DNA from: Escherichia coli | GTDB taxonomy: Bacteria > Pseudomonadota > Gammaproteobacteria > Enterobacterales > Enterobacteriaceae | Length of the DNA: 64,000 nucleotides | Reading direction: 5' to 3' (one strand) | Assembly: GCF_044324875.1 (NCBI RefSeq) | Contig: NZ_CP172185.1 | Shown: piece after piece, positions 2,902 through 10,606 of the stretch | Position numbering within the stretch: position 1 is the first letter of the stretch | Layout: the number at the start of each line of letters is the position of its first letter | The notes under the pieces: model-generated | Told to the model about the DNA's origin: nothing | What the model saw: the letters and a program-made list of their open reading frames with translations, nothing else | The model's database searches: none | Translations under genes and position numbers: made by a program

Positions 2902-3702
2902 AGCTGGGGGACTGGTATCTTTCAGCTCACTGATTTTGTTGCTGAACCTGATATATCCTTCGGTTTTCCACAACCAGGGGAAGGGTGTCATCATAAGGCG
3001 TGATGACACCCTGAATTCCCATCCTGTATCTGCAGAAAATTTTTCGTAAATAAATTAATTTAATAACTAAAAAGAAAATACAATAAGCAAAATATCAATT
3101 ACAGCATGTTCGTTTGTTTAAAGAACCTGCTGGTCCTGCCATTAATATTACCTGCTGATTGCTTCACATCCGGATTCCTCGCACTGCGCGCGGGTTATTG
3201 TTTCGTTTTCGGCCACGGGGTCGCCAGGGCTCTGTTTGCAGGCCATGATGGCCTGACCTGTACTGTTTCTCAGGCACTGAGATGTCCGTTTACGCCATTT
3301 GTTCCCGGATATCCTTAACCTCTGACGTTTGTTCCCTGCCCCTCTGTCTGATAACGAATACGCTCACAACGCACAGTACTGAACAATACCGACAACAACA
3401 TGTCTTACATGAAATTCGCTGTAACATCCACCGGAAAACATTTTCAGATATCGGATGAGGTACTACTTCCATTGACAGCGCGAGGTAACAAAATTGATGG
3501 TAACTCTGACCATTAACCGTAAACCGCAGGGTATTTTCAGTAAATCACCGGCAACGCCGCTGCAGGATAAAACGGACACAGCATACAAAATGAAGGCCGG
3601 TGACCAGATACCACAGTTGAACGATAAACAGAAACCTGCTGATAAAACACCGTGGCGACATGACAAAACGCCAGAGCAAAAACCGTAAGCGCATTATTCG
3701 TC

Positions 3703-4005
3703 TTGTGGAACTCTGGCCTGAGTCATTCAACCGGGAAAAAAACAAAACCACTTAAAGTGGGGATACCTGACGACCTGATACAGGATATCGCCATCCGAGA
3801 ACTGGCGTTTGGCGCTGGTACATTACATGCAGCAGTGGCGTCTTATGTGCAGTCTCCGTGCTATTACCGTGCGTTAATAGCAGGTGGCGCCCGTTACAAC
3901 CTGAACGGTCAGCCGTGCGGGGAAGTGACACCACAGGAACAGAAAGAGGCAGAGACCCGTTTAATGATGCTGAATGACCGACGAAAAGACAGAAAACCTC
4001 GTTGA
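3703..4005 (+). CDS. FinO/ProQ-like RNA-binding domain protein (possibly frameshifted with upstream ORF 3494..3688)
   Basis: KPLKVGIPDDLIQDIA...YNLNGQPCGEVTPQEQKEAETRL resembles the ProQ N-terminal FinO domain (RPLKIGIFQDL...DLDGNPCGELDEQ); track start is TTG. Confidence 0.4.
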   Translation: MWNSGLSHSTGKKTKPLKVGIPDDLIQDIAIRELAFGAGTLHAAVASYVQSPCYYRALIAGGARYNLNGQPCGEVTPQEQKEAETRLMMLNDRRKDRKPR

Positions 4006-4022
4006 CTGCACAACAGCGCTGT

Positions 4023-4619
4023 TCACTGAGCTGTAATCAATGTACAGCGCTGTACCGGGCGATGGGTAATACCGGTCACAACCGGTAACCCCAGAGACAA
4101 TGCAACTGTTTTTAACGCAATATACTGGCCGGATGTATCACCCCGGGCAGCCTGAAAACACCTTTCCACCCGGCATTGTCCGTCAGCACTTATCACCCGC
4201 CATGTCTGTTGCAATAAATCCACCCGTTGCGAACATTCTTCATCAACCGTGGCACTGACCCGTGGATGGCAAATGCTCGTCTGGCTGAGCAGCAACAGGC
4301 ATCGCATTGTTGCTCCTCCATGTTGTTCCCGCAACCAGCGTAATACCACCGGTGGTGCTGGACTGGCCGTGTGATTACGTTCAGTAATACGCTCGTGCAC
4401 CTGTCGGTAAAAGGAAGTACAGAATGCATGAATCTGTTGTCCGTTGATGTTTCCTTCTGCCGAATGGAGCGTGAAGTGAAATGCCAACAGATTTGGCCAG
4501 TGGTCCACCGCCTGCTGAACAAAACGCCGGATTTCCCCCGGCGCTGAAAGTAAGGCTTCGGTTATTTGCACTATTTTATCCCCGTTGAATTTTGTTAAGC
4601 CGGTGCAGACCAGACACAC
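4023..4619 (-). CDS. Inovirus Gp2-family (YagK/YfjJ-like) protein, paralog 1
   Basis: 198 aa; same overall architecture as the two downstream paralogs (LAFHFTLH ... MRCLLLLSQT). Confidence 0.45.
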   Translation of the reverse strand: MCLVCTGLTKFNGDKIVQITEALLSAPGEIRRFVQQAVDHWPNLLAFHFTLHSAEGNINGQQIHAFCTSFYRQVHERITERNHTASPAPPVVLRWLREQHGGATMRCLLLLSQTSICHPRVSATVDEECSQRVDLLQQTWRVISADGQCRVERCFQAARGDTSGQYIALKTVALSLGLPVVTGITHRPVQRCTLITAQ

Positions 4620-4848
4620 GGAAAGCGCACATCGACACCGGCACGGTACGATACAAACACCAGTGACTGGCGGGACGAAGGGAATGACGAATCAGTCAGG
4701 AAATGATGACAAACAGTTGGCTGGCCAGAGGGTGCCAGCAGAAAGATGAGCGGGAGTTGTCAGCGCCAGCACCAGGGACAGGGCTGATTTCCACAATACC
4801 AGCGCCGGCATTTCGCACATTGCCAGCGTACTGGCATTACAACACGTT

Positions 4849-5085
4849 TCATGCTGCTGCTCCTCGTGATTCCTCAATTCGCTGCTGCATCCACTGCTCC
4901 ACTTCACTTTTGTACCAGCGGCTGCTGCGCCCCAGTTTGATGGGTTTAGGGAAATGGCCTTCACTGATCAGCTTGTAAAACCATTTGTCGGTCATACCAG
5001 TGAAGCTGGTGATGTAGTTCATGTCGATCAGGGGATCGTCGGCACGCAGCAATACGCTGTCGTGACCTGTCATTGAGGTCAACAT
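4849..5085 (-). CDS. alpA: AlpA-family phage/island transcriptional regulator
   Basis: 78 aa; MNYITSFTGMTDKWFYKLISEGHFPKPIKLGRSSRWYKSEVEQWM is the AlpA HTH signature. Confidence 0.8.
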   Translation of the reverse strand: MLTSMTGHDSVLLRADDPLIDMNYITSFTGMTDKWFYKLISEGHFPKPIKLGRSSRWYKSEVEQWMQQRIEESRGAAA

Positions 5086-5153
5086 GGTCAGAATGTCCTC
5101 TGTGAGATTTATGAATGTTGGGCAAATGCGGGTGAATCTGCTGAGCTGAGCTT

Positions 5154-5756
5154 TCAGAGCTGGCCTGCTACGGGATACCAGGGATTACCGGCGAGGTAAC
5201 GGGCTTCCGGATCGCGCACACCACGACGATCGCGGGCGAAATCACTGAACGCCCATATCAGCTCTTTGAGTCTCTCTTCGCAGTCCGGTGAACAACTGTC
5301 CAGCACCACATCCCGGGTTATCTGTTTCTGGTACGGTGCTGCTTCACCCGGTGACGCGAAGCCCAGTACGTTGCTCCAGGCATCCAGAATCAACCGGTCC
5401 AGCTCAGGGCCGTCGAAATATTCCTGTCTGACGCACAGCACCACGTGGTATTCCGGTTTTTCAGGATGACGGGTCAGGAGCCAGCAGAGGTCGCGTCCGG
5501 GGGTTGCATTCATCAGCGCACTGACGGTTTCGATAAAGGCCATACCGAACCAGGTTTTTCTGTCGCTGAAGATGTTGCCATGTTCCCCCGGCAGACGAAG
5601 CAGGATCCGCCGTATCCTGGAGCCGGACTGCTCGCGCAACACACGGTTGAGAACGCCGATGATTTTGTTCTGATAAGATGGCCAGAAGGGCGCCATGCTA
5701 TAGTCGAAATAAGGGATAGCATTCATAAGATATGTTCCGTTATACGCAGCCCACAA
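5154..5756 (-). CDS. Inovirus Gp2-family (YfjI/YagK-like) protein, paralog 2
   Basis: 200 aa; island backbone position immediately after alpA. Confidence 0.55.
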   Translation of the reverse strand: MWAAYNGTYLMNAIPYFDYSMAPFWPSYQNKIIGVLNRVLREQSGSRIRRILLRLPGEHGNIFSDRKTWFGMAFIETVSALMNATPGRDLCWLLTRHPEKPEYHVVLCVRQEYFDGPELDRLILDAWSNVLGFASPGEAAPYQKQITRDVVLDSCSPDCEERLKELIWAFSDFARDRRGVRDPEARYLAGNPWYPVAGQL

Positions 5757-6082
5757 CGCGTCCTGCCCGTGGATGCGCTGACGTGTTATGGCTTGCGTAT
5801 GGGGTTGATGGAATAAGTGAAAAACCGCGGCAGAACGGGAAGATCAGGTAACCGACAAGGGACAGAACACCGGATGCAGGTTCAGAATGAATGATCTCCG
5901 TTGACTTCGGTTCACATCATTAAGCAGGACAGTAAGGTTTTACCGACGGAGTGTTTCCAGGAGCGAAAGCAGAGAAAAATACCGTTGCATGACTTCAGGA
6001 CGACTTTTTCAGAAAACGAGCTAAGGGCGTCAGCCAACGTCCTGTAGCATAAGCTCAGGCACCGGATGTCGTTTTACAGGGC

Positions 6083-6814
6083 TCACCTGCCATCCAGCAG
6101 ACGCCCCGGCCCACGACTGCAACCATAATTACGTTGCCCGGAACCGTCATGCTGCTTCGTCTCATATTTCACGAGATAACTGGCTCTGTTCCGGGCTTTC
6201 TGCAGCGCTTCCACATCACCACGCTTGATCCAGAGAACAGCGGCTTCACCCGGCTTTTTTTCTGAAGCCTTCCTGGTATCAGAACATCCACCCGACAAAG
6301 GCGTGTCATCGGAAGAAGGGCGAGCATCAGACGATGCTGGTTTACGGGAAGGCGTCCACCTGGAAAAATGGACCAGGCCATCGCCTTGCCAGGCCTCAAG
6401 ATGCAGGGCGCTGCACCATGCCTCCAGGATCATCGTCGCCAGCGAAGATGGTTCGCTGAAATCCCCTGGCGAGCACCAGGTATCTTTGTTGAGCAGCAAT
6501 ATCACGTGATAATGTTTCCTGCCTTTTTCCTTGCCAAACTCCCGACACCAGAAATAACGCAGAGTGGTTGCACGCACACGCTTGTTGGCACGTCGTTTTT
6601 TCCGCTGGTAAGCCTGGATTTTGGCTTTCAGGGATTCGAAAAAACGAGAAATCACCGCTGAATCCGGATCGGGATCCATGATGGTGACAGGCATATACTC
6701 AGGGAAACGTAAATCCACCCGGATTAACGAGACGGCACGGTGCTGCGACAGGGCACTGTCGAGAAGGCTGTCAAAACGGGATAACCAGTAAGCATTGTGT
6801 ATTGGTTGATTCAT
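6083..6814 (-). CDS. Inovirus Gp2-family (YfjJ/YagK-like) protein, paralog 3
   Basis: 243 aa; LIRVDLRFPEY ... HYHVILLLNKD pattern. Confidence 0.6.
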   Translation of the reverse strand: MNQPIHNAYWLSRFDSLLDSALSQHRAVSLIRVDLRFPEYMPVTIMDPDPDSAVISRFFESLKAKIQAYQRKKRRANKRVRATTLRYFWCREFGKEKGRKHYHVILLLNKDTWCSPGDFSEPSSLATMILEAWCSALHLEAWQGDGLVHFSRWTPSRKPASSDARPSSDDTPLSGGCSDTRKASEKKPGEAAVLWIKRGDVEALQKARNRASYLVKYETKQHDGSGQRNYGCSRGPGRLLDGR

Positions 6815-6849
6815 GATGAGAGATCTCCGTTGATTTGGATTGACTTCAC

Positions 6850-8390
6850 ATCATTAATCACCGCGGTAAAACTTTACGGCATCATGTCATTAAGCAATGC
6901 TACAACTCTCTGATTAAGAGTGATTGAAACGGAACAAACCATCCCGGAACGAAAAGATAATCCTGCACACAGCAGCAAAACACGCAACAACAGCATGAAT
7001 GGATTTAAAAACGACATGGACGACGAGAAAAGCCTGAAGGGAAAAGGATCCACAGAACATTCGAACAAAACACCAGAAACGCAACCAGAACGCTTCCTGG
7101 CAATGCAAATCAACAACAACGCCAAAACCTACAGCTTAATCACACAACTCAATCACGAATGCGAATGACACGTTTAAAACCTGTTTACAGATAACGCCGT
7201 AACACGATCATCCCCATCACCATCAGAATCGATTTTCTCATCCCGAAAATGTTACGTTTCACTACGCACCATAAAAACGATTAACCATCGATAACGTAAA
7301 TCTCATCTGAATCAAAAAACCAAAACCAATCATCACACTTTCGCAATGCAAGAAGAAAAACCACATCATGACGAAAACAATGACCTTACATGAAAAAGCA
7401 AAACGTCAGGAATCGTTAATGCCTCAATCTGATTGTTATCAAAACATCCAGAAAGTCGTTTAACAGAATCGTCGTAAGCACATCGAAAAGAACGTCAGAT
7501 CACCTCAGGAAAGTTCGGGTTGATTTAGCGTAAAGATACTTTTCTCAGCTTAACGTCGAAACACAAACCAAAAACCACAAACAACCAAAGCTCAGGAAAG
7601 GTTAAACGTCACATCAGTAAAATCGAATAGCAGATTGATTGCTTAAACAGGAAAGATTGTTTTACAGCAGCATTAAACTGATTTAGTTAACGTAAAATCA
7701 GAACTGACAGGTTTACTAACTTGGATGTGTATCAGTTCAAAAATGTGTACAGCAATGCGTAATGAAACACATTTAAAGGAGATTAATGGGAAAAGTGTGT
7801 AAATGCGTAAACATGCACTAATGAATCACTGAAGGAATACATACAAAACGACTTAATGAAAACATAAAAGGACCTAATGGAAAAGGTGTATATAATACCA
7901 TATCCGACATTCTCAACATCTTAAGACATCCATGCAGACTGAATGTTGGTTTCAGTTTTTCACGGTAAGCATGAATCTTTTCTGTTCAAAAGCAGAGCAG
8001 ATTTACTCTGGAATTATTTTTCTTACTCCGTATTCTGTACAGCAAAAACTTGTGCTAACTTTACAGCAAACCATCATAATCAGCGTCTGTAGTCCCATCG
8101 CTTTACCCCATGAAAGTGAATCCATATGATGTGAGAGAGATAAGTCATCGTATCCGGTAAACACTGCTTACTATAACATAAGATCATTCAGTCAGTTTTA
8201 TCTCTGAACTGACGATTATGGCATGCTCATTTATATGGCTCACAGAGGAGTGTTATTATCCGTAAGCTTTAATCATCAAATCACATGACCATACCAAACT
8301 GGCGCTATATCAGCTCATTTGACGCTCATTCCCTTTAGATTTCTTTATGTGTTTTTTGTCGATAATTAAAATGTAATATAAATTTAATAT
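6850..8390. other. About 1.5 kb ORF-poor, strand-skewed (A+C-rich top strand) intergenic region with recurrent short motifs
   Basis: No ORF of 60 aa or more on either strand between about 7170 and 7930; recurring AACGT(C/A)A..ATC, TCAGGAAAG and TAATGRA motifs. Confidence 0.6.
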
Positions 8391-8397
8391 TTTCACA

Positions 8398-9621
8398 TCA
8401 TAAACACCATTTAAAACCATCATCCTGAACATCATACAACAATATATTTTTACTAAAGCATGAATTGTATATTTCTATTAATTCAGGAAAATTATCAGGA
8501 TTCACCTTTAAATTCAACTGAATGTTACACTTAATTTCACTCAGCAGTTCTTCATGCGTGGATTTTATTATCCCTTTATCATAATCTATAAATACACACA
8601 TGTTTTTCATGAATTCAAACCCTTTTCCTGTATACAGTTTGATGAATGCCACAAGAGCAAACATTTCAAGATGCAGCCATAATGCCACGTGAGTTTTTCG
8701 CAAAGTATAAAAAATTGAATTCGCCACTTTTTTACTTATTGCTCTTTTGTACTGTGAGTGCGCCAGATTCAGTAGTGGCAATTCTCTCTCGATAAATGAA
8801 AGTGAAAAAGGCGGGTAAATTGATGTCGGAAATATTTCAGGTCTTATGATATTTTCGATTTCCACCATAAATCTATCCATAGAACGAAAATCATTTTCTT
8901 TTTTTATTCTGGTATAGAGACCGCCTTTATTCCTTACTGCGACTTTTTTTCGTGCTATCCCCCCCAACATTTCCTCTAATTGTTTATTTATCTTCGTATC
9001 ATTAAATACAACCATTCTTCTTATCATCCTGGGAAGGATGATAATATCAGAGCTTGAATCACTTGAACGGCAATTATTATTGATCCATGCAACTTCAAGT
9101 TGAAGTATCGGAACATTAAATTCTCTGGGGTTAATAACTCTCTGATATTGTTTTTTGTATGCGTTTTCATTAAGATATTCTCTGCTGTAGAGAAACTTAT
9201 AGCAATATAATCTGACAATATCCTTTATGTAAGATTTAAATGAGTCACCTGTAACAGATATATTTTTTCTTCTCAGTAACTCCTGTGTATTGAGCCATTC
9301 CCGTGACCGGAGTACTCCATTATGAAGACTTTTTCTTACTTGCTTTGAATTGCGCAATTGATGTAATATTTTTGCGTCCTCAACAATTCTCTTTCCCGTT
9401 TGATTTCTTGCAGCATCTATTACTCTGTCAAATATCTCCCGGTCCAGACTTTTGTCATATTTACTGATTATACGACAAATATTCCTGACCCGACGGTTCT
9501 CTTTATTTCGTTTCCATAACTGATAATGATCATCACATAACCTCAGGGCATTTGCCTCATCAAATTCTGAAACAGGATTGCTGCATTTTTTATTCCGACA
9601 GATACCTTTGTTTTTAGCCAT
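8398..9621 (-). CDS. Hypothetical protein, 407 aa, low-GC orphan
   Basis: Long ATG-initiated ORF with purine-rich SD; Lys/Arg/Asn-rich; N-terminal Cys-x4-Cys ... Cys-x2-His; no family recognised. Confidence 0.6.
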   Translation of the reverse strand: MAKNKGICRNKKCSNPVSEFDEANALRLCDDHYQLWKRNKENRRVRNICRIISKYDKSLDREIFDRVIDAARNQTGKRIVEDAKILHQLRNSKQVRKSLHNGVLRSREWLNTQELLRRKNISVTGDSFKSYIKDIVRLYCYKFLYSREYLNENAYKKQYQRVINPREFNVPILQLEVAWINNNCRSSDSSSDIIILPRMIRRMVVFNDTKINKQLEEMLGGIARKKVAVRNKGGLYTRIKKENDFRSMDRFMVEIENIIRPEIFPTSIYPPFSLSFIERELPLLNLAHSQYKRAISKKVANSIFYTLRKTHVALWLHLEMFALVAFIKLYTGKGFEFMKNMCVFIDYDKGIIKSTHEELLSEIKCNIQLNLKVNPDNFPELIEIYNSCFSKNILLYDVQDDGFKWCL

Positions 9622-9721
9622 ACTCTTCTTCCCGTCAATGGAAAAATTTTCACGTCCATATTACCTGACTGAGAGGCCGGATTAATGTGATCCGGTTCAG
9701 TGAAATCAACAGGATAACGGT

Positions 9722-10606
9722 ATGTCATTCAGCCATTCTTCCCTCTCCGCACACGTAAAGTCACATCTGACCTTTCTTCCTGAAGAAATTCGCCAGAAAA
9801 TCCTTGAACATCTTCGCAGCGTCATTCAGTACGAACCCGTTATTGGCATTATGGGTAAATCCGGTGCCGGAAAAAGCAGCCTGTGCAATGCCATTTTTCA
9901 GTCCCGTGTCTGCGCCACGCATCCGCTGAACGGCTGCACCCGTCAGGCTCATCGTCTTACCTTTCAGCCCGGTGAACGAAGAATGACGCTGGTCGATCTG
10001 CCCGGCACTGGCGAAACACCACAGCATGATCAGGAATACCGGGCACTTTACAGTCAGTTACTGCCCGAACTGGATCTGATTATCTGGATCCTGCGGGCTG
10101 ATGAACGTGCGTATGCTGCCGACATCGCCATGCATCAGTTTTTACTGAATGAAGGTGCCGATCCCTCGCGTTTTCTGTTTGTTCTCAGCCATGCCGATCG
10201 CATCCACCCGGCTGAAGAATGGAACAACCAGAGCAGCACGCCATCCCGTCAGCAGGAACTCTCACTGGCGACGGTGACAGCCCGGGTGGCAACCCTGTTC
10301 CCTTCATCATTTCCGGTACTCCCCATAGCCGCTCCTGCCGGCTGGAATCTTCCGGCATTTGTGTCTCTGATGATCCACGCCCTGCCACCACAGGCAACCA
10401 GCGCGGTTTATTCGCATATCCGGAATGAAAAGCGCACTGCGCAGGATCAGCAACACGCACAGCAGGCTTTTGGTGACGCCATCGGCCAGAGTTTTGACGC
10501 TGCCATTGCCCGGTTCAGCTTTCCGGCCTGGATGCTGCAGCTTCTGCGCAAAGCCCGTGATCGCATTATCCGCCTGCTGATCACACTGTGGGATCGCCTG
10601 TTCTGA
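9722..10606 (+). CDS. YeeP/YfjP-family GTPase (50S ribosome-binding GTPase-like)
   Basis: 294 aa; P-loop GIMGKSGAGKSS and DLPGTGE switch motif. Confidence 0.85.
   Translation: MSFSHSSLSAHVKSHLTFLPEEIRQKILEHLRSVIQYEPVIGIMGKSGAGKSSLCNAIFQSRVCATHPLNGCTRQAHRLTFQPGERRMTLVDLPGTGETPQHDQEYRALYSQLLPELDLIIWILRADERAYAADIAMHQFLLNEGADPSRFLFVLSHADRIHPAEEWNNQSSTPSRQQELSLATVTARVATLFPSSFPVLPIAAPAGWNLPAFVSLMIHALPPQATSAVYSHIRNEKRTAQDQQHAQQAFGDAIGQSFDAAIARFSFPAWMLQLLRKARDRIIRLLITLWDRLF

Follow-up and report, generated by a model that had tools for sequence, protein, structure and literature searches.

A repeated upstream block in a YagK/YfjJ-alpA island module of Escherichia coli: a candidate duplicated 5' control region with a leader predicted to hide a start codon

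Genes for YagK/YfjJ ('inovirus Gp2 family') proteins and alpA-like genes belong to the conserved core of many genomic islands, including pathogenicity islands of E. coli, CP4-type islands and tmRNA-inserted Pseudomonas islands. A full-text literature search with gene, family and Pfam names returned no work on the function or regulation of YagK/YfjJ proteins. In one such module, located in a stretch of 64,000 nucleotides of E. coli DNA (contig NZ_CP172185.1, assembly GCF_044324875.1; hereafter the window), a similar block of sequence was noticed in the 5' flanks of two genes, and an earlier note proposed that it is a common promoter, operator or leader, or part of a duplicated module that includes its regulatory region. 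Which of these is it, and why does it occur twice? We hold with moderate confidence that the block is the duplicated 5' control region of a YagK/YfjJ cassette, consisting of a putative -10 hexamer and a 5' UTR, and that the leader helix of one copy hides a start codon.

All features described here lie on the minus strand. Gene 2 (6083-6814) encodes a YagK/YfjJ protein of 243 amino acids, which matches Pfam PF11726 at 3.1e-36 and PF23343 (REP_ORF2-G2P) at 4.9e-9. Its HUH motif (H101, H103) and its YxxK motif (Y213-x-x-K216) are invariant in the homologue alignment. A sequence search of solved structures revealed no relative of gene 2, and the best PDB matches of its structural model are HUH nucleases, e.g. 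AAV Rep and parvovirus NS1, although these matches are weak (E about 0.02). Gene 1 (5154-5726) encodes a protein of 190 amino acids and was found only in E. coli. Its 5' end had been set at 5756, but the PGAP annotation and the homologues, all of which open with MNAIPYFDYS, place the true ATG at 5726. The description of the two genes as Gp2-family paralogues is correct for gene 2 and overstated for gene 1, which matches PF11726 with an E value of only 0.46 and lacks both the first histidine of the HUH motif and the tyrosine of YxxK. Profile-profile comparison (hhalign) nevertheless aligns gene 1 with YagK/YfjJ over 113 columns (79% probability, E 1.6e-5). Gene 1 is thus probably a distant YagK/YfjJ relative rather than a certified member of the family, and its product probably lacks the catalytic residues. 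On the 3' side of gene 1, a gene with the same direction (4849-5085) encodes an AlpA-like excisionase or helix-turn-helix protein of 78 amino acids, and a third, weakly YagK/YfjJ-like open reading frame occupies 4023-4571.

Both strings quoted in the earlier note are exact matches in the window; the second lies at 6822-6863, as given, while the first lies at 5893-5928 and not at about 5876-5918. Ungapped extension widens the similarity to 5881-5943 (copy 1) and 6810-6877 (copy 2), with one 5-nt indel between the two. The block is the top local alignment between the two units of gene plus upstream sequence, and its score of 41 compares with 22.1 +/- 2.2 and a maximum of 33 in 500 shuffles, so that the shared element in the 5' flanks is real. 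A 12-mer, GATCTCCGTTGA, and a 13-mer, TTCACATCATTAA, have exact matches in the 64 kb at the two block sites only; with up to one mismatch, shuffles predict 0.32 and 0.07 matches, respectively. Outside the block, local alignment detected no further significant DNA similarity between the two units, and the encoded proteins share about 20% identity, as against about 80% for the block. The proposals of a duplicated module and of a leader hold: of the DNA likeness between the two tandem units, the block is all that remains.

Copy 2 spans everything between a -10-like hexamer and the gene 2 ATG (6814), which it abuts, and includes the Shine-Dalgarno sequence GGAG (6825-6828). This GGAG is overlapped by a GATC site. 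Copy 1, in comparison, precedes the ATG of gene 1 by 166 nt, since the real start of this gene is at 5726, and is thus not directly in front of it.

Several further resemblances were considered and set aside. A third copy of the block in front of the third paralogue (start at 4571) was rejected, as the common sequence comprises only CAACGGGGAT (4578-4587) and is not significant. An additional 12-mer, TTAATGACATGA, lies at 6882-6893, upstream of and 36 nt from the 12-mer in copy 2, and is not kept in other strains. Six 12-mers resembling TTAATGAYRTGA cluster on one strand between 5912 and 9005, but this is unlikely to be a genuine array, because the three extra sites have dissimilar flanks in AT-rich DNA and are probably chance matches. 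A full-text literature search for the motif strings returned nothing relevant.

Judged by sequence comparison, the E. coli block is the local version of a wider signature upstream of YagK/YfjJ genes, TT(T/A)AC-N15-T(A/G)TGAA, with its end 24-30 nt ahead of the ATG. Among 80 YagK/YfjJ loci picked by protein similarity, 20 carry TTTAC-N15-TRTGAA with at most one mismatch and with a start 40-75 nt before the gene, compared with 0.1 expected from background frequency. These loci belong to Escherichia, Entomohabitans, Hafnia, Tenebrionibacter, Siccibacter, Superficieibacter, Rosenbergiella, Proteus and Providencia, and their proteins are 33-43% identical to gene 2; Morganella has the signature with two mismatches. 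The search upstream of YagK/YfjJ homologues that the earlier note had suggested thus recovers a degenerate form of the motif in several other genera, but not in the upstream regions of yfjJ and yagK of K-12. In the window, box 1 is TTTAC in copy 2 (6866-6870) and CTTAC in copy 1 (5932-5936), and box 2 is TGTGAA in both (6845-6850 and 5911-5916). The bipartite motif has no further occurrence in the 64 kb, e.g. none near an integrase gene. In Providencia and Hafnia, an AlpA-like gene likewise follows the Gp2 gene on its 3' side, which suggests that motif, Gp2 and alpA constitute the ancestral unit.

Across all lineages the interval between the boxes is 15 nt without exception. Such strictness looks less like a constraint on RNA than like the demand of a protein that recognises double-stranded DNA, and in this respect it speaks against an RNA model. 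In gene direction, the proposed control region would consist of a TAnnnT -10-like hexamer, box 1 with the core T(T/A)AC, the 15-nt interval, box 2 with T(A/G)TGAA, a CAAC-GGAG ribosome-binding region and the ATG.

In the mRNA, copy 2 has a predicted fold that would probably hide the start codon of gene 2. The 5' arm GGUGAUUAAUGAUG (6849-6862) is complementary to the 3' arm CAUCAUGAAUCA (6807-6818), which contains the start codon (6812-6814) and codons 2-3: GGUGAUU-A-AUGAUG in the leader faces CAUCAU-G-AAUCA. In the minimum-free-energy fold, the GGA of the Shine-Dalgarno sequence also pairs with the UCC of AAUCCAAAU. The fold has a free energy of -16.5 kcal/mol (z = -2.55), with a z of only -1.81 for a longer, 102-nt construct, and the duplex between leader and start region amounts to -13.2 kcal/mol, a value reached by 0.7% of shuffles.

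Copy 2 sequences hardly vary within E. coli. As in copy 2, the start codon and codons 2-4 have a predicted pairing partner in the UTR of the Proteus, Providencia and Morganella homologues; the leaders from these three genera have z values of -2.2 to -5.2, and their duplexes reach -11 to -16.5 kcal/mol, compared with about -4 in shuffles. RNAalifold, unprompted, predicts the same helix over the AUG together with an ACC:GGU pairing over the Shine-Dalgarno sequence. In the helix alignment, 87% of cells are paired, compared with 27-44% when the partner is slid. The 5' arm follows codons 2-3 lineage by lineage, as in UGAUU/AAUCA, UCUAGA/UCUAGA, UAGG/CCUA and GUAAUU/AAUUAC. Two pairs of the 10-bp RNAalifold core are changed on both sides, from AU to GC opposite coding position +4 and from AU to UA opposite position -2. 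The full 12-pair helix has four such pairs, a count that was reached by 31 of 500 shuffles and reflects few independent events. The G of the AUG takes part in one U.G pair that never varies and can form only in sense-strand RNA. A different solution is seen in the L004-L010 group, where a local hairpin overlaps the Shine-Dalgarno sequence instead (z about -2).

As the leader is predicted to pair with both start codon and Shine-Dalgarno sequence, the translation-initiation region would be buried in a hairpin. If this helix forms in vivo and represses translation, as we propose, synthesis of the Rep-like protein would remain low as long as nothing opens or bypasses the helix. The conserved signature and the start-hiding leader together suggest a tight post-transcriptional limit on the production of this protein, and the 60-nt region offers a concrete target for point mutations.

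Hairpins in the 5' UTR that bury the start region are known from the 'fold-back inhibition' of IS10 and IS50 and from the leaders of plasmid rep mRNAs. Copy 2 is similar in that the start codon and its neighbours find their complement in a segment 35-50 nt upstream, which would sequester the ribosome-binding region, and in that the controlled gene encodes a mobile-element protein of the replication or transposition type, which is to be made sparingly. It differs from these systems in that an antisense RNA, a leader peptide or an external promoter were not identified here, and in its two-box signature of fixed spacing, which is conserved beyond the needs of pairing. In IS10, the 5' arm of the hairpin is present only in read-through transcripts. 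The translational operator of the Ff gene II mRNA is likewise a cis element in a leader, here of the mRNA for inovirus-type gene II (Gp2), and restricts initiator translation. The Ff operator is, however, an unstructured site repressed by the single-strand-binding gene V protein, whereas intramolecular pairing is proposed for the present block, and YagK/YfjJ proteins are only distant relatives of gpII (5e-9 to REP_ORF2-G2P for gene 2). In being short, structured and conserved in front of the genes of a single protein family, the leader also resembles the cis-regulatory families of Rfam, but none of the Rfam 15 models matches the region 3000-10000 of the window at E values up to 1. The block would be a tidy and fairly ordinary regulatory element, a useful detail of annotation rather than a new principle.

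Unlike copy 2, copy 1 lacks a start-region helix (z +0.4 to +1.4), and shuffled sequences give duplexes as good as its own. The position homologous to the gene 2 ATG is CTG (5883-5885), or TTA in some strains, and the vestigial Shine-Dalgarno GGAG (5896-5899) is not followed by a start codon. With the start codon missing and gene 1 166 nt away, copy 1 does not qualify as a working ribosome-binding region. We propose that the YagK/YfjJ cassette was duplicated in tandem within the Gp2-alpA island module, the control region being copied along, and that copy 1 is the paralogous copy, which lost its start codon and its 3' arm. The E. coli module would thus have grown by tandem duplication of control region and gene, followed by decay of the second copy. 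Copy 1 would now form the 5' end of an approximately 200-nt leader of gene 1, which extends from box 1 to the ATG (5727-5931) and has predicted hairpins at 5806-5919, with the block as 5' strand, at 5745-5797 and at 5724-5744, the last over the Shine-Dalgarno sequence and AUG of gene 1. Copy 1 may therefore act as the 5' strand of a long leader hairpin, and it might still hold promoter function.

Despite these losses, copy 1 is near-invariant across 17 strains. In 13 strains, 34 of 35 columns of the block are invariant compared with 100 of 145 columns in the remaining leader (p = 2e-4). The block is also kept where the downstream leader is swapped for unrelated sequence (L088, L089) and where the upstream gene belongs to another subfamily (L085-L087). 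Pairing between copy 1 and the rest of the leader is striking by eye and also present in the unrelated L088-type leader, yet it is equalled by 4-25% of shuffles, and its covariation is uninformative. Because copy 1 has no start-region helix and its pairing within the leader is marginal, the RNA model alone fails to explain its strong conservation.

Other explanations of the copy 1 region were also rejected. A small open reading frame after copy 1 has no conserved start codon (CTG, CTG or TTA), and its frame continues into gene 1 without a stop only where a strain carries a 12-nt deletion. The 166-nt leader does not appear to be a decayed coding sequence or a duplicated 5' gene end, since beyond the block it has no DNA or protein similarity to genes 1 and 2. 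The two hypervariable patches of copy 1 do not form a conserved RNA helix: one is present in L084 and L087 but broken in the window, in L085 and in L089.

Whether the block also serves as a promoter depends on the hexamer next to box 1. In copy 2, TAAAGT (6871-6876) lies directly 5' of box 1, and a possible -35 element, TTGCTT (6892-6897), precedes it with a 15-nt spacer; by their sequence, the two form a putative promoter of gene 2. A -10-like hexamer, TATTTT, TACTTT, TAAAGT or TAAGTT, adjoins box 1 to within about 2 nt in every lineage, and this TAnnnT hexamer is the sole promoter-like element kept across lineages. Transcription would accordingly be expected to begin just downstream of it. 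A consensus scan for sigma-70 promoters listed nothing in copy 1 or copy 2, and in a position-weight scan the best candidate on the sense strand of copy 2 was TTGCTT-15-TAAAGT, with 6.6 bits, a weak -10 and a poor -35. The corresponding hexamer of copy 1, TAAAAC, is poor. On the antisense strand, the same type of scan gave TTCACA-16-TAAnnT with about 8.5 bits in E. coli only, but an antisense promoter was rejected, as it is present in both E. coli copies and missing at the same place in other genera. A reading of the two boxes as sigma-70 -35 and -10 elements fails because the 14-nt spacer is too short for the usual 16-18 nt. On neither strand do the lineages share a good sigma-70 promoter, and the common promoter suggested in the earlier note remains putative. 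Sites for CRP, IHF, LexA or regulators of the Ogr/Delta type, compared only by eye with consensus sequences, did not suit both copies.

The conservation of copy 1 and the fixed interval could be accounted for by a DNA operator, a less probable but not negligible possibility. The two boxes, whose centres are 20 bp apart, would then be read as TTYAYA-N14-TRTRAA, an inverted repeat of imperfect symmetry, and form the putative site of an island-encoded AlpA-like or Gp2-like regulator that controls transcription of Gp2-alpA, copy 1 having the same role for gene 1-alpA. The interval indeed stays constant in all lineages despite differing RNA folds, box 2 is retained in Hafnia-type lineages although it has no significant pairing to the start region there, and copy 1 is near-invariant without any role in translation initiation. 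Moreover, related 12-mers flank the -10-like hexamer of copy 2 on both sides, 5 or 6 of about 10 Providencia/Proteus loci have, just upstream, an inverted repeat that is perfect or nearly so, (A)TTCATCAT-N9-10-(A)TGATGAA(T), and an alpA-like gene is always present in the same module. A precedent comes from the prophage Pf4, whose AlpA-like excisionase XisF4 binds to the promoter of PA0727, the gene for the replication initiator, and activates it (PMC7379572). Pf4 resembles the present module by combining an AlpA/excisionase-type protein and a Gp2-type initiator gene in one mobile element; in Pf4 the small protein acts upstream of the initiator gene (PMC7379572), and the present module differs in that alpA follows the Gp2 genes on their 3' side and points the same way. 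The operator is weakened by half-sites of poor symmetry (4/6 positions in E. coli), by the restriction of the bipartite motif to the two copies in the 64-kb window and by the variation of the extra upstream 12-mer between strains. In addition, the arms that pair with the start region co-change with codons 2-4, which is unexpected for a DNA site and speaks for the duplicated control region with an RNA leader.

More speculatively, and with a rather low probability, a trans-acting factor from the island or a helper phage may recognise the two-box signature and open or lock the start-region hairpin or nick the DNA there; candidates are the AlpA-like protein and Gp2-like proteins, including the catalytically dead paralogues. 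If this were true, the block would be a switch that couples island induction to the production of the Rep-like protein, and it would provide a first handle on the role of the widespread Gp2-alpA core module in genomic islands.

It is unlikely that the similarity is only a relic of the tandem duplication, with a functionless copy 1 that was kept through recent island divergence and recombination. The loss of the start codon and 3' arm from copy 1, its poor TAAAAC hexamer and the patchy, mosaic variation of E. coli copy 1 leaders that are 93% identical overall would agree with such a view. On the other hand, the block has retained its identity of about 80% while the proteins diverged to about 20%, it is better conserved than the rest of its own leader, and it survives both replacement of the downstream leader and a swap of the upstream gene.

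Less likely than an operator, and indeed quite improbable, is a Rep nick site, i.e. a single-stranded or hairpin DNA site that is cleaved by the adjacent HUH-type Gp2/Rep-like protein and serves as rolling-circle or transfer origin of the island. For many HUH Rep proteins, the origin hairpin lies just upstream of the rep gene. Gene 2 has intact HUH and YxxK motifs, matches REP_ORF2-G2P and finds its best structural matches, weak as they are, among HUH nucleases, and in several lineages the conserved box is enclosed by hairpins with differing stems. In every case, however, these hairpins include the Shine-Dalgarno sequence or the AUG and change along with the coding sequence, as suits translation control, and the invariant U.G pair favours RNA. 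Furthermore, the paralogue behind copy 1 is devoid of the catalytic residues, and apart from a short TTAAT the block bears no likeness to known nick sites.

Finally, it is highly improbable that box 2 (TATGAA or TGTGAA) is a -10-like pause site for sigma-70 RNA polymerase at which AlpA loads in a Q-like manner and then lets the polymerase read through the hairpin after gene 2, as AlpA of P. aeruginosa works by means of a binding element, GGGACG, plus a -10-like pause sequence at -1 to +5 (PMC9371919): although the module has an alpA-like gene and a hairpin 3' of gene 2, and box 2 matches TATAAT at 4/6 positions in many lineages, GGGACG occurs in neither copy, the E. coli box 2 reads TGTGAA, without the A and the T that are critical, its position would be about +17 to +22, the hairpin is unconvincing as a terminator, and the AlpA-like protein of 78 amino acids is essentially a helix-turn-helix alone and hence cannot hold the N-terminal ring plus C-terminal helix-turn-helix (residues 128-142) of P. 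aeruginosa AlpA. The hairpin in question (6010-6043) follows the gene 2 stop codon and is succeeded by a short T-run. It shows a weak resemblance to a terminator, was not called by a terminator scan, and its 10-bp core occurs in opposite orientation among strains.

Both strings quoted in the earlier note occur letter for letter in the window, at 5893-5928 and 6822-6863, and the similarity around them reaches 5881-5943 (copy 1) and 6810-6877 (copy 2) on the minus strand, with one 5-nt indel. Apart from this block (score 41 versus 22 +/- 2.2 for shuffles), the two gene units share no significant DNA similarity, and the two exact cores of the block have no further occurrence in the 64 kb, where shuffles predict 0.3 and 0.07 matches. 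Copy 2 contains the GGAG of gene 2 and continues directly into the gene 2 ATG. Copy 1 lies 166 nt 5' of the gene 1 ATG, and the position of the copy 2 ATG is occupied by CTG, or by TTA in some strains. Homologues of gene 1 came exclusively from E. coli (61/61), and every extended form inspected starts with MNAIPYFDYS, so gene 1 has no N-terminal extension into the block. A GATC (Dam) site overlaps the GGAG (GGAGATC) in both copies, at 5893-5896 and 6822-6825; it does not vary among the E. coli copies examined, and AGATCT is additionally formed in copy 2.

Gene 2 (6814 to 6083, minus strand, 243 aa) encodes a clear YagK/YfjJ protein (PF11726, 3e-36; REP_ORF2-G2P, 5e-9) with an invariant HUH motif and a YxxK motif, and the best PDB matches of its AlphaFold model (pLDDT 77) are HUH nucleases, albeit weak ones. 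Gene 1 (5726 to 5154, minus strand, 190 aa) did not pass against Pfam (E 0.46) and aligned with the family profile at 79% probability (E 1.6e-5). It carries EYH where HYH is expected, and the tyrosine is absent. The term paralogs, used when the block was first described, therefore holds only if taken to mean an old duplicate, which judging by these residues is probably non-catalytic.

The window represents a CP4-type or pathogenicity-island-type genomic island of E. coli, and strain B771 is 99.5% identical to it across 2.2 kb. In transcription order, gene 2 and gene 1 are followed on the minus strand by a helix-turn-helix gene of the AlpA-like type (5085 to 4849) and a third Gp2-like ORF, a weak one (4571 to 4023). 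Beyond these lies a ProQ/FinO gene with a frameshift. The other flank of the module carries the customary set of genes, encoding a GTPase, DUF932, an antirestriction protein, RadC and the CbtA toxin-antitoxin pair. Copy 2 precedes 'inovirus Gp2 family' genes in 1894 of the 5426 complete E. coli genomes, and copy 1 with its leader is present in 1877 E. coli genomes; the block is absent at K-12 yfjJ and yagK.

The earlier note had also suggested a search for the motif upstream of homologues, and this revealed a family-wide signature. Across 80 fetched loci encoding YagK/YfjJ relatives, taken from a collection with one genome per species, exact 9-mers were limited to E. coli-like sequences. The nearer subfamilies, with proteins 33-43% identical to gene 2, have in common the two-box signature TT(T/A)AC-N15-T(A/G)TGAA, which ends 24-30 nt 5' of the ATG. 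With at most one mismatch, it begins 40-75 nt 5' of the gene in 20 of the 80 loci, where the background frequency predicts 0.1. Its only matches in the window are the two copies, TTTAC...TGTGAA at 6845-6870 and CTTAC...TGTGAA at 5911-5936. In Providencia and Hafnia, an AlpA-like excisionase gene lies 3' of the Gp2 gene; thus, the ancestral unit is motif, Gp2, alpA, relative to which E. coli has an additional motif-plus-gene unit between Gp2 and alpA. At the gene 2 position, many E. coli islands instead have a member of a second Gp2 subfamily (MPKSY..., 188 aa) with the motif ATTAC-N15-TATGAG; since nothing has changed in copy 1, gene 1 or alpA, the cassette has been exchanged. In the loci L085, L086 and L087 (about 1780-2486), this gene (MPKSYTPNWFF...) has a leader with a strong 8-bp hairpin, TGAGCGAA/TTCGCTCA (z = -3.8 for the whole leader).

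Folding predictions suggest that the leader conceals the start of the gene. Copy 2 is predicted to fold at -16.5 kcal/mol (z = -2.55), pairing UGAUU with AAUCA in codons 2-3, AUGAUG with CAUCAU covering the A and U of the AUG, and UCC with the GGA of the Shine-Dalgarno sequence; its leader-to-start duplex (-13.2 kcal/mol) is matched by 0.7% of shuffles. (AU)UCUAGAUAUGA pairs with UCAUGUCUAGA(A) in Proteus and Providencia, and UUAGGUAUGU with ACAUGCCUA in Morganella, the leaders of these genera having z values between -2.2 and -5.2 and duplexes at -11 to -16.5 kcal/mol versus about -4 for shuffles. RNAalifold recovered the helix over the AUG, together with ACC:GGU over the Shine-Dalgarno sequence, from 11 such leaders, and 87% of the cells in the helix alignment are paired versus 27-44% with partners slid. 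Changes on both sides occur opposite coding position +4 (AU to GC) and opposite position -2 (AU to UA), but covariation is thin, the observed count being reached by 31 of 500 shuffles. In Hafnia, Rosenbergiella and Entomohabitans, a local hairpin ending in the Shine-Dalgarno sequence is predicted instead (z about -2), with the arms CCGGU and ACCGG-AG or CUUCAGUAAUU and AAUUACUGGAG. The ribosome-binding region is thus predicted to be sequestered in every lineage by arms that differ in sequence. Such a mechanism would be of a familiar kind, in which a replication gene of a mobile element has its start codon hidden by a leader hairpin.

For copy 1, folding and duplex tests gave no helix over any start region. 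Its sequence, TTAATGATGTGAAC[CT]GAAGTCAACGGAGATCATTC, is invariant across 17 strains save the single C/T position, and it is retained where the downstream leader is unrelated sequence (loci L088 and L089) and where the upstream gene is swapped. In a comparison of 13 strains, 34 of 35 block columns are invariant versus 100 of 145 in the rest of the leader (p = 2e-4). Copy 1 is therefore under constraint, which may act at the level of the RNA, of a promoter or operator, or of both. In the predicted fold of the whole gene 1 leader, the block forms the 5' strand of a long hairpin, pairing GAACYGAAG with CUUCRGUUC, AACGG with CCGUU and AGAUCA with UGAUCU, and a separate small hairpin lies at the gene 1 start region. 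The C/T position forms a C-G, U.G or U-A pair in 12 of 13 strains, and complementarity to the block is likewise present in the L088-type leader (UGAUGUGA with UCACAUCA, GGAGAUCA with UGGUCUCC). The pairing is statistically weak, being equalled by 4-25% of shuffled leaders, and covariation is uninformative. A 12-nt indel within the gene 1 leader (GTCGGTTACCTG; 5835-5846, columns 76-87 of alignment A6) divides the strains into two groups. In those without the segment, the frame from the copy 1 CTG is open throughout into gene 1, probably a coincidence because there is no start codon.

Regarding transcription, the two boxes were rejected as a sigma-70 promoter, whose spacer would be 14 nt, and no promoter is conserved at one shared place on either strand across lineages. 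Directly 5' of box 1 lies a conserved TAnnnT hexamer. Copy 2 has TAAAGT there, copy 1 a poor TAAAAC and the MPKSY type TAAGTT; the hexamer is TATTTT in Proteus, Providencia, Morganella and some of the Enterobacteriaceae, and TACTTT in others. In Hafnia, about 100 nt separate the Gp2 start codon from the end of the nearest upstream ORF, which has the opposite orientation, and the promoter must therefore be located approximately there. From this layout and the hexamer we infer that transcription would start directly 3' of box 1, the remaining block being 5' UTR. In several Providencia and Proteus loci (L021, L030, L023, L026, L015), an inverted repeat that is perfect over 9 bp or near-perfect over 7-8 bp, (A)TTCATCAT-N9-10-(A)TGATGAA(T), lies about 25-50 nt 5' of box 1 and just 5' of the -10-like hexamer; its half-site is similar to E. 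coli AATGATGTGAA. Morganella and P. alcalifaciens have other palindromes there (GATAGGTG/CACCTATC and ACAGGTG/CACCTGT). These elements may be operators or weak terminators.

The main rival to a leader hairpin is a DNA operator. In its favour are the rigid spacing between the boxes, the conservation of box 2 even where it is unpaired with the start region, the conservation of copy 1, and a precedent in Pf4, whose replication-initiator promoter is bound by an AlpA-like excisionase (PMC7379572). A nick site for the Rep protein is possible but disfavoured: the hairpins follow the coding sequence and contain an invariant U.G pair, which uses the G of AUG and exists solely in sense-strand RNA. The family signature is unlikely to be a pure relic, a reading that holds in part for the start region lost from copy 1. 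An AlpA/Q-type antiterminator site was rejected, as the defining features (PMC9371919) are lacking: GGGACG is absent, box 2 is wrongly positioned and the AlpA-like protein has only 78 aa. Rfam gave no match, and full-text literature searches turned up nothing about these motifs or about how YagK/YfjJ genes are regulated; in the literature, Gp2-like and AlpA genes are counted, without known function, among the core genes of a class of Pseudomonas islands.

Several observations concern the surroundings. In several strains, the frameshifted ProQ/FinO-family gene (7775-8283 in locus L001, just below 4023 in the window) adjoins the module and has the opposite orientation; a ProQ-like RNA chaperone next to structured leaders could be of relevance. 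The ORF 3' of alpA (4023-4619) is annotated as 'YagK/YfjJ domain-containing' in one genome (WP_001167473.1) and as 'hypothetical' in others, and BLASTP against gene 2 gave only E 0.02; the module may contain three Gp2-like genes. The approximately 1 kb 5' of gene 2 (6878-7900) has few ORFs, PGAP calling only a 57-aa hypothetical one, and is strongly A-rich on the plus strand (T-/G-rich on the coding strand); an extended regulatory region or an extended leader may lie here. Directly 3' of the gene 2 stop, a hairpin (6024-6043; about 2470-2500 in locus L084) has a 10-bp core that is inverted between strains, reading GTTGGCTGAC on the coding strand of the window and GTCAGCCAAC in L084 and L088; as the flanking stem is kept, this suggests loop inversion through the stem.
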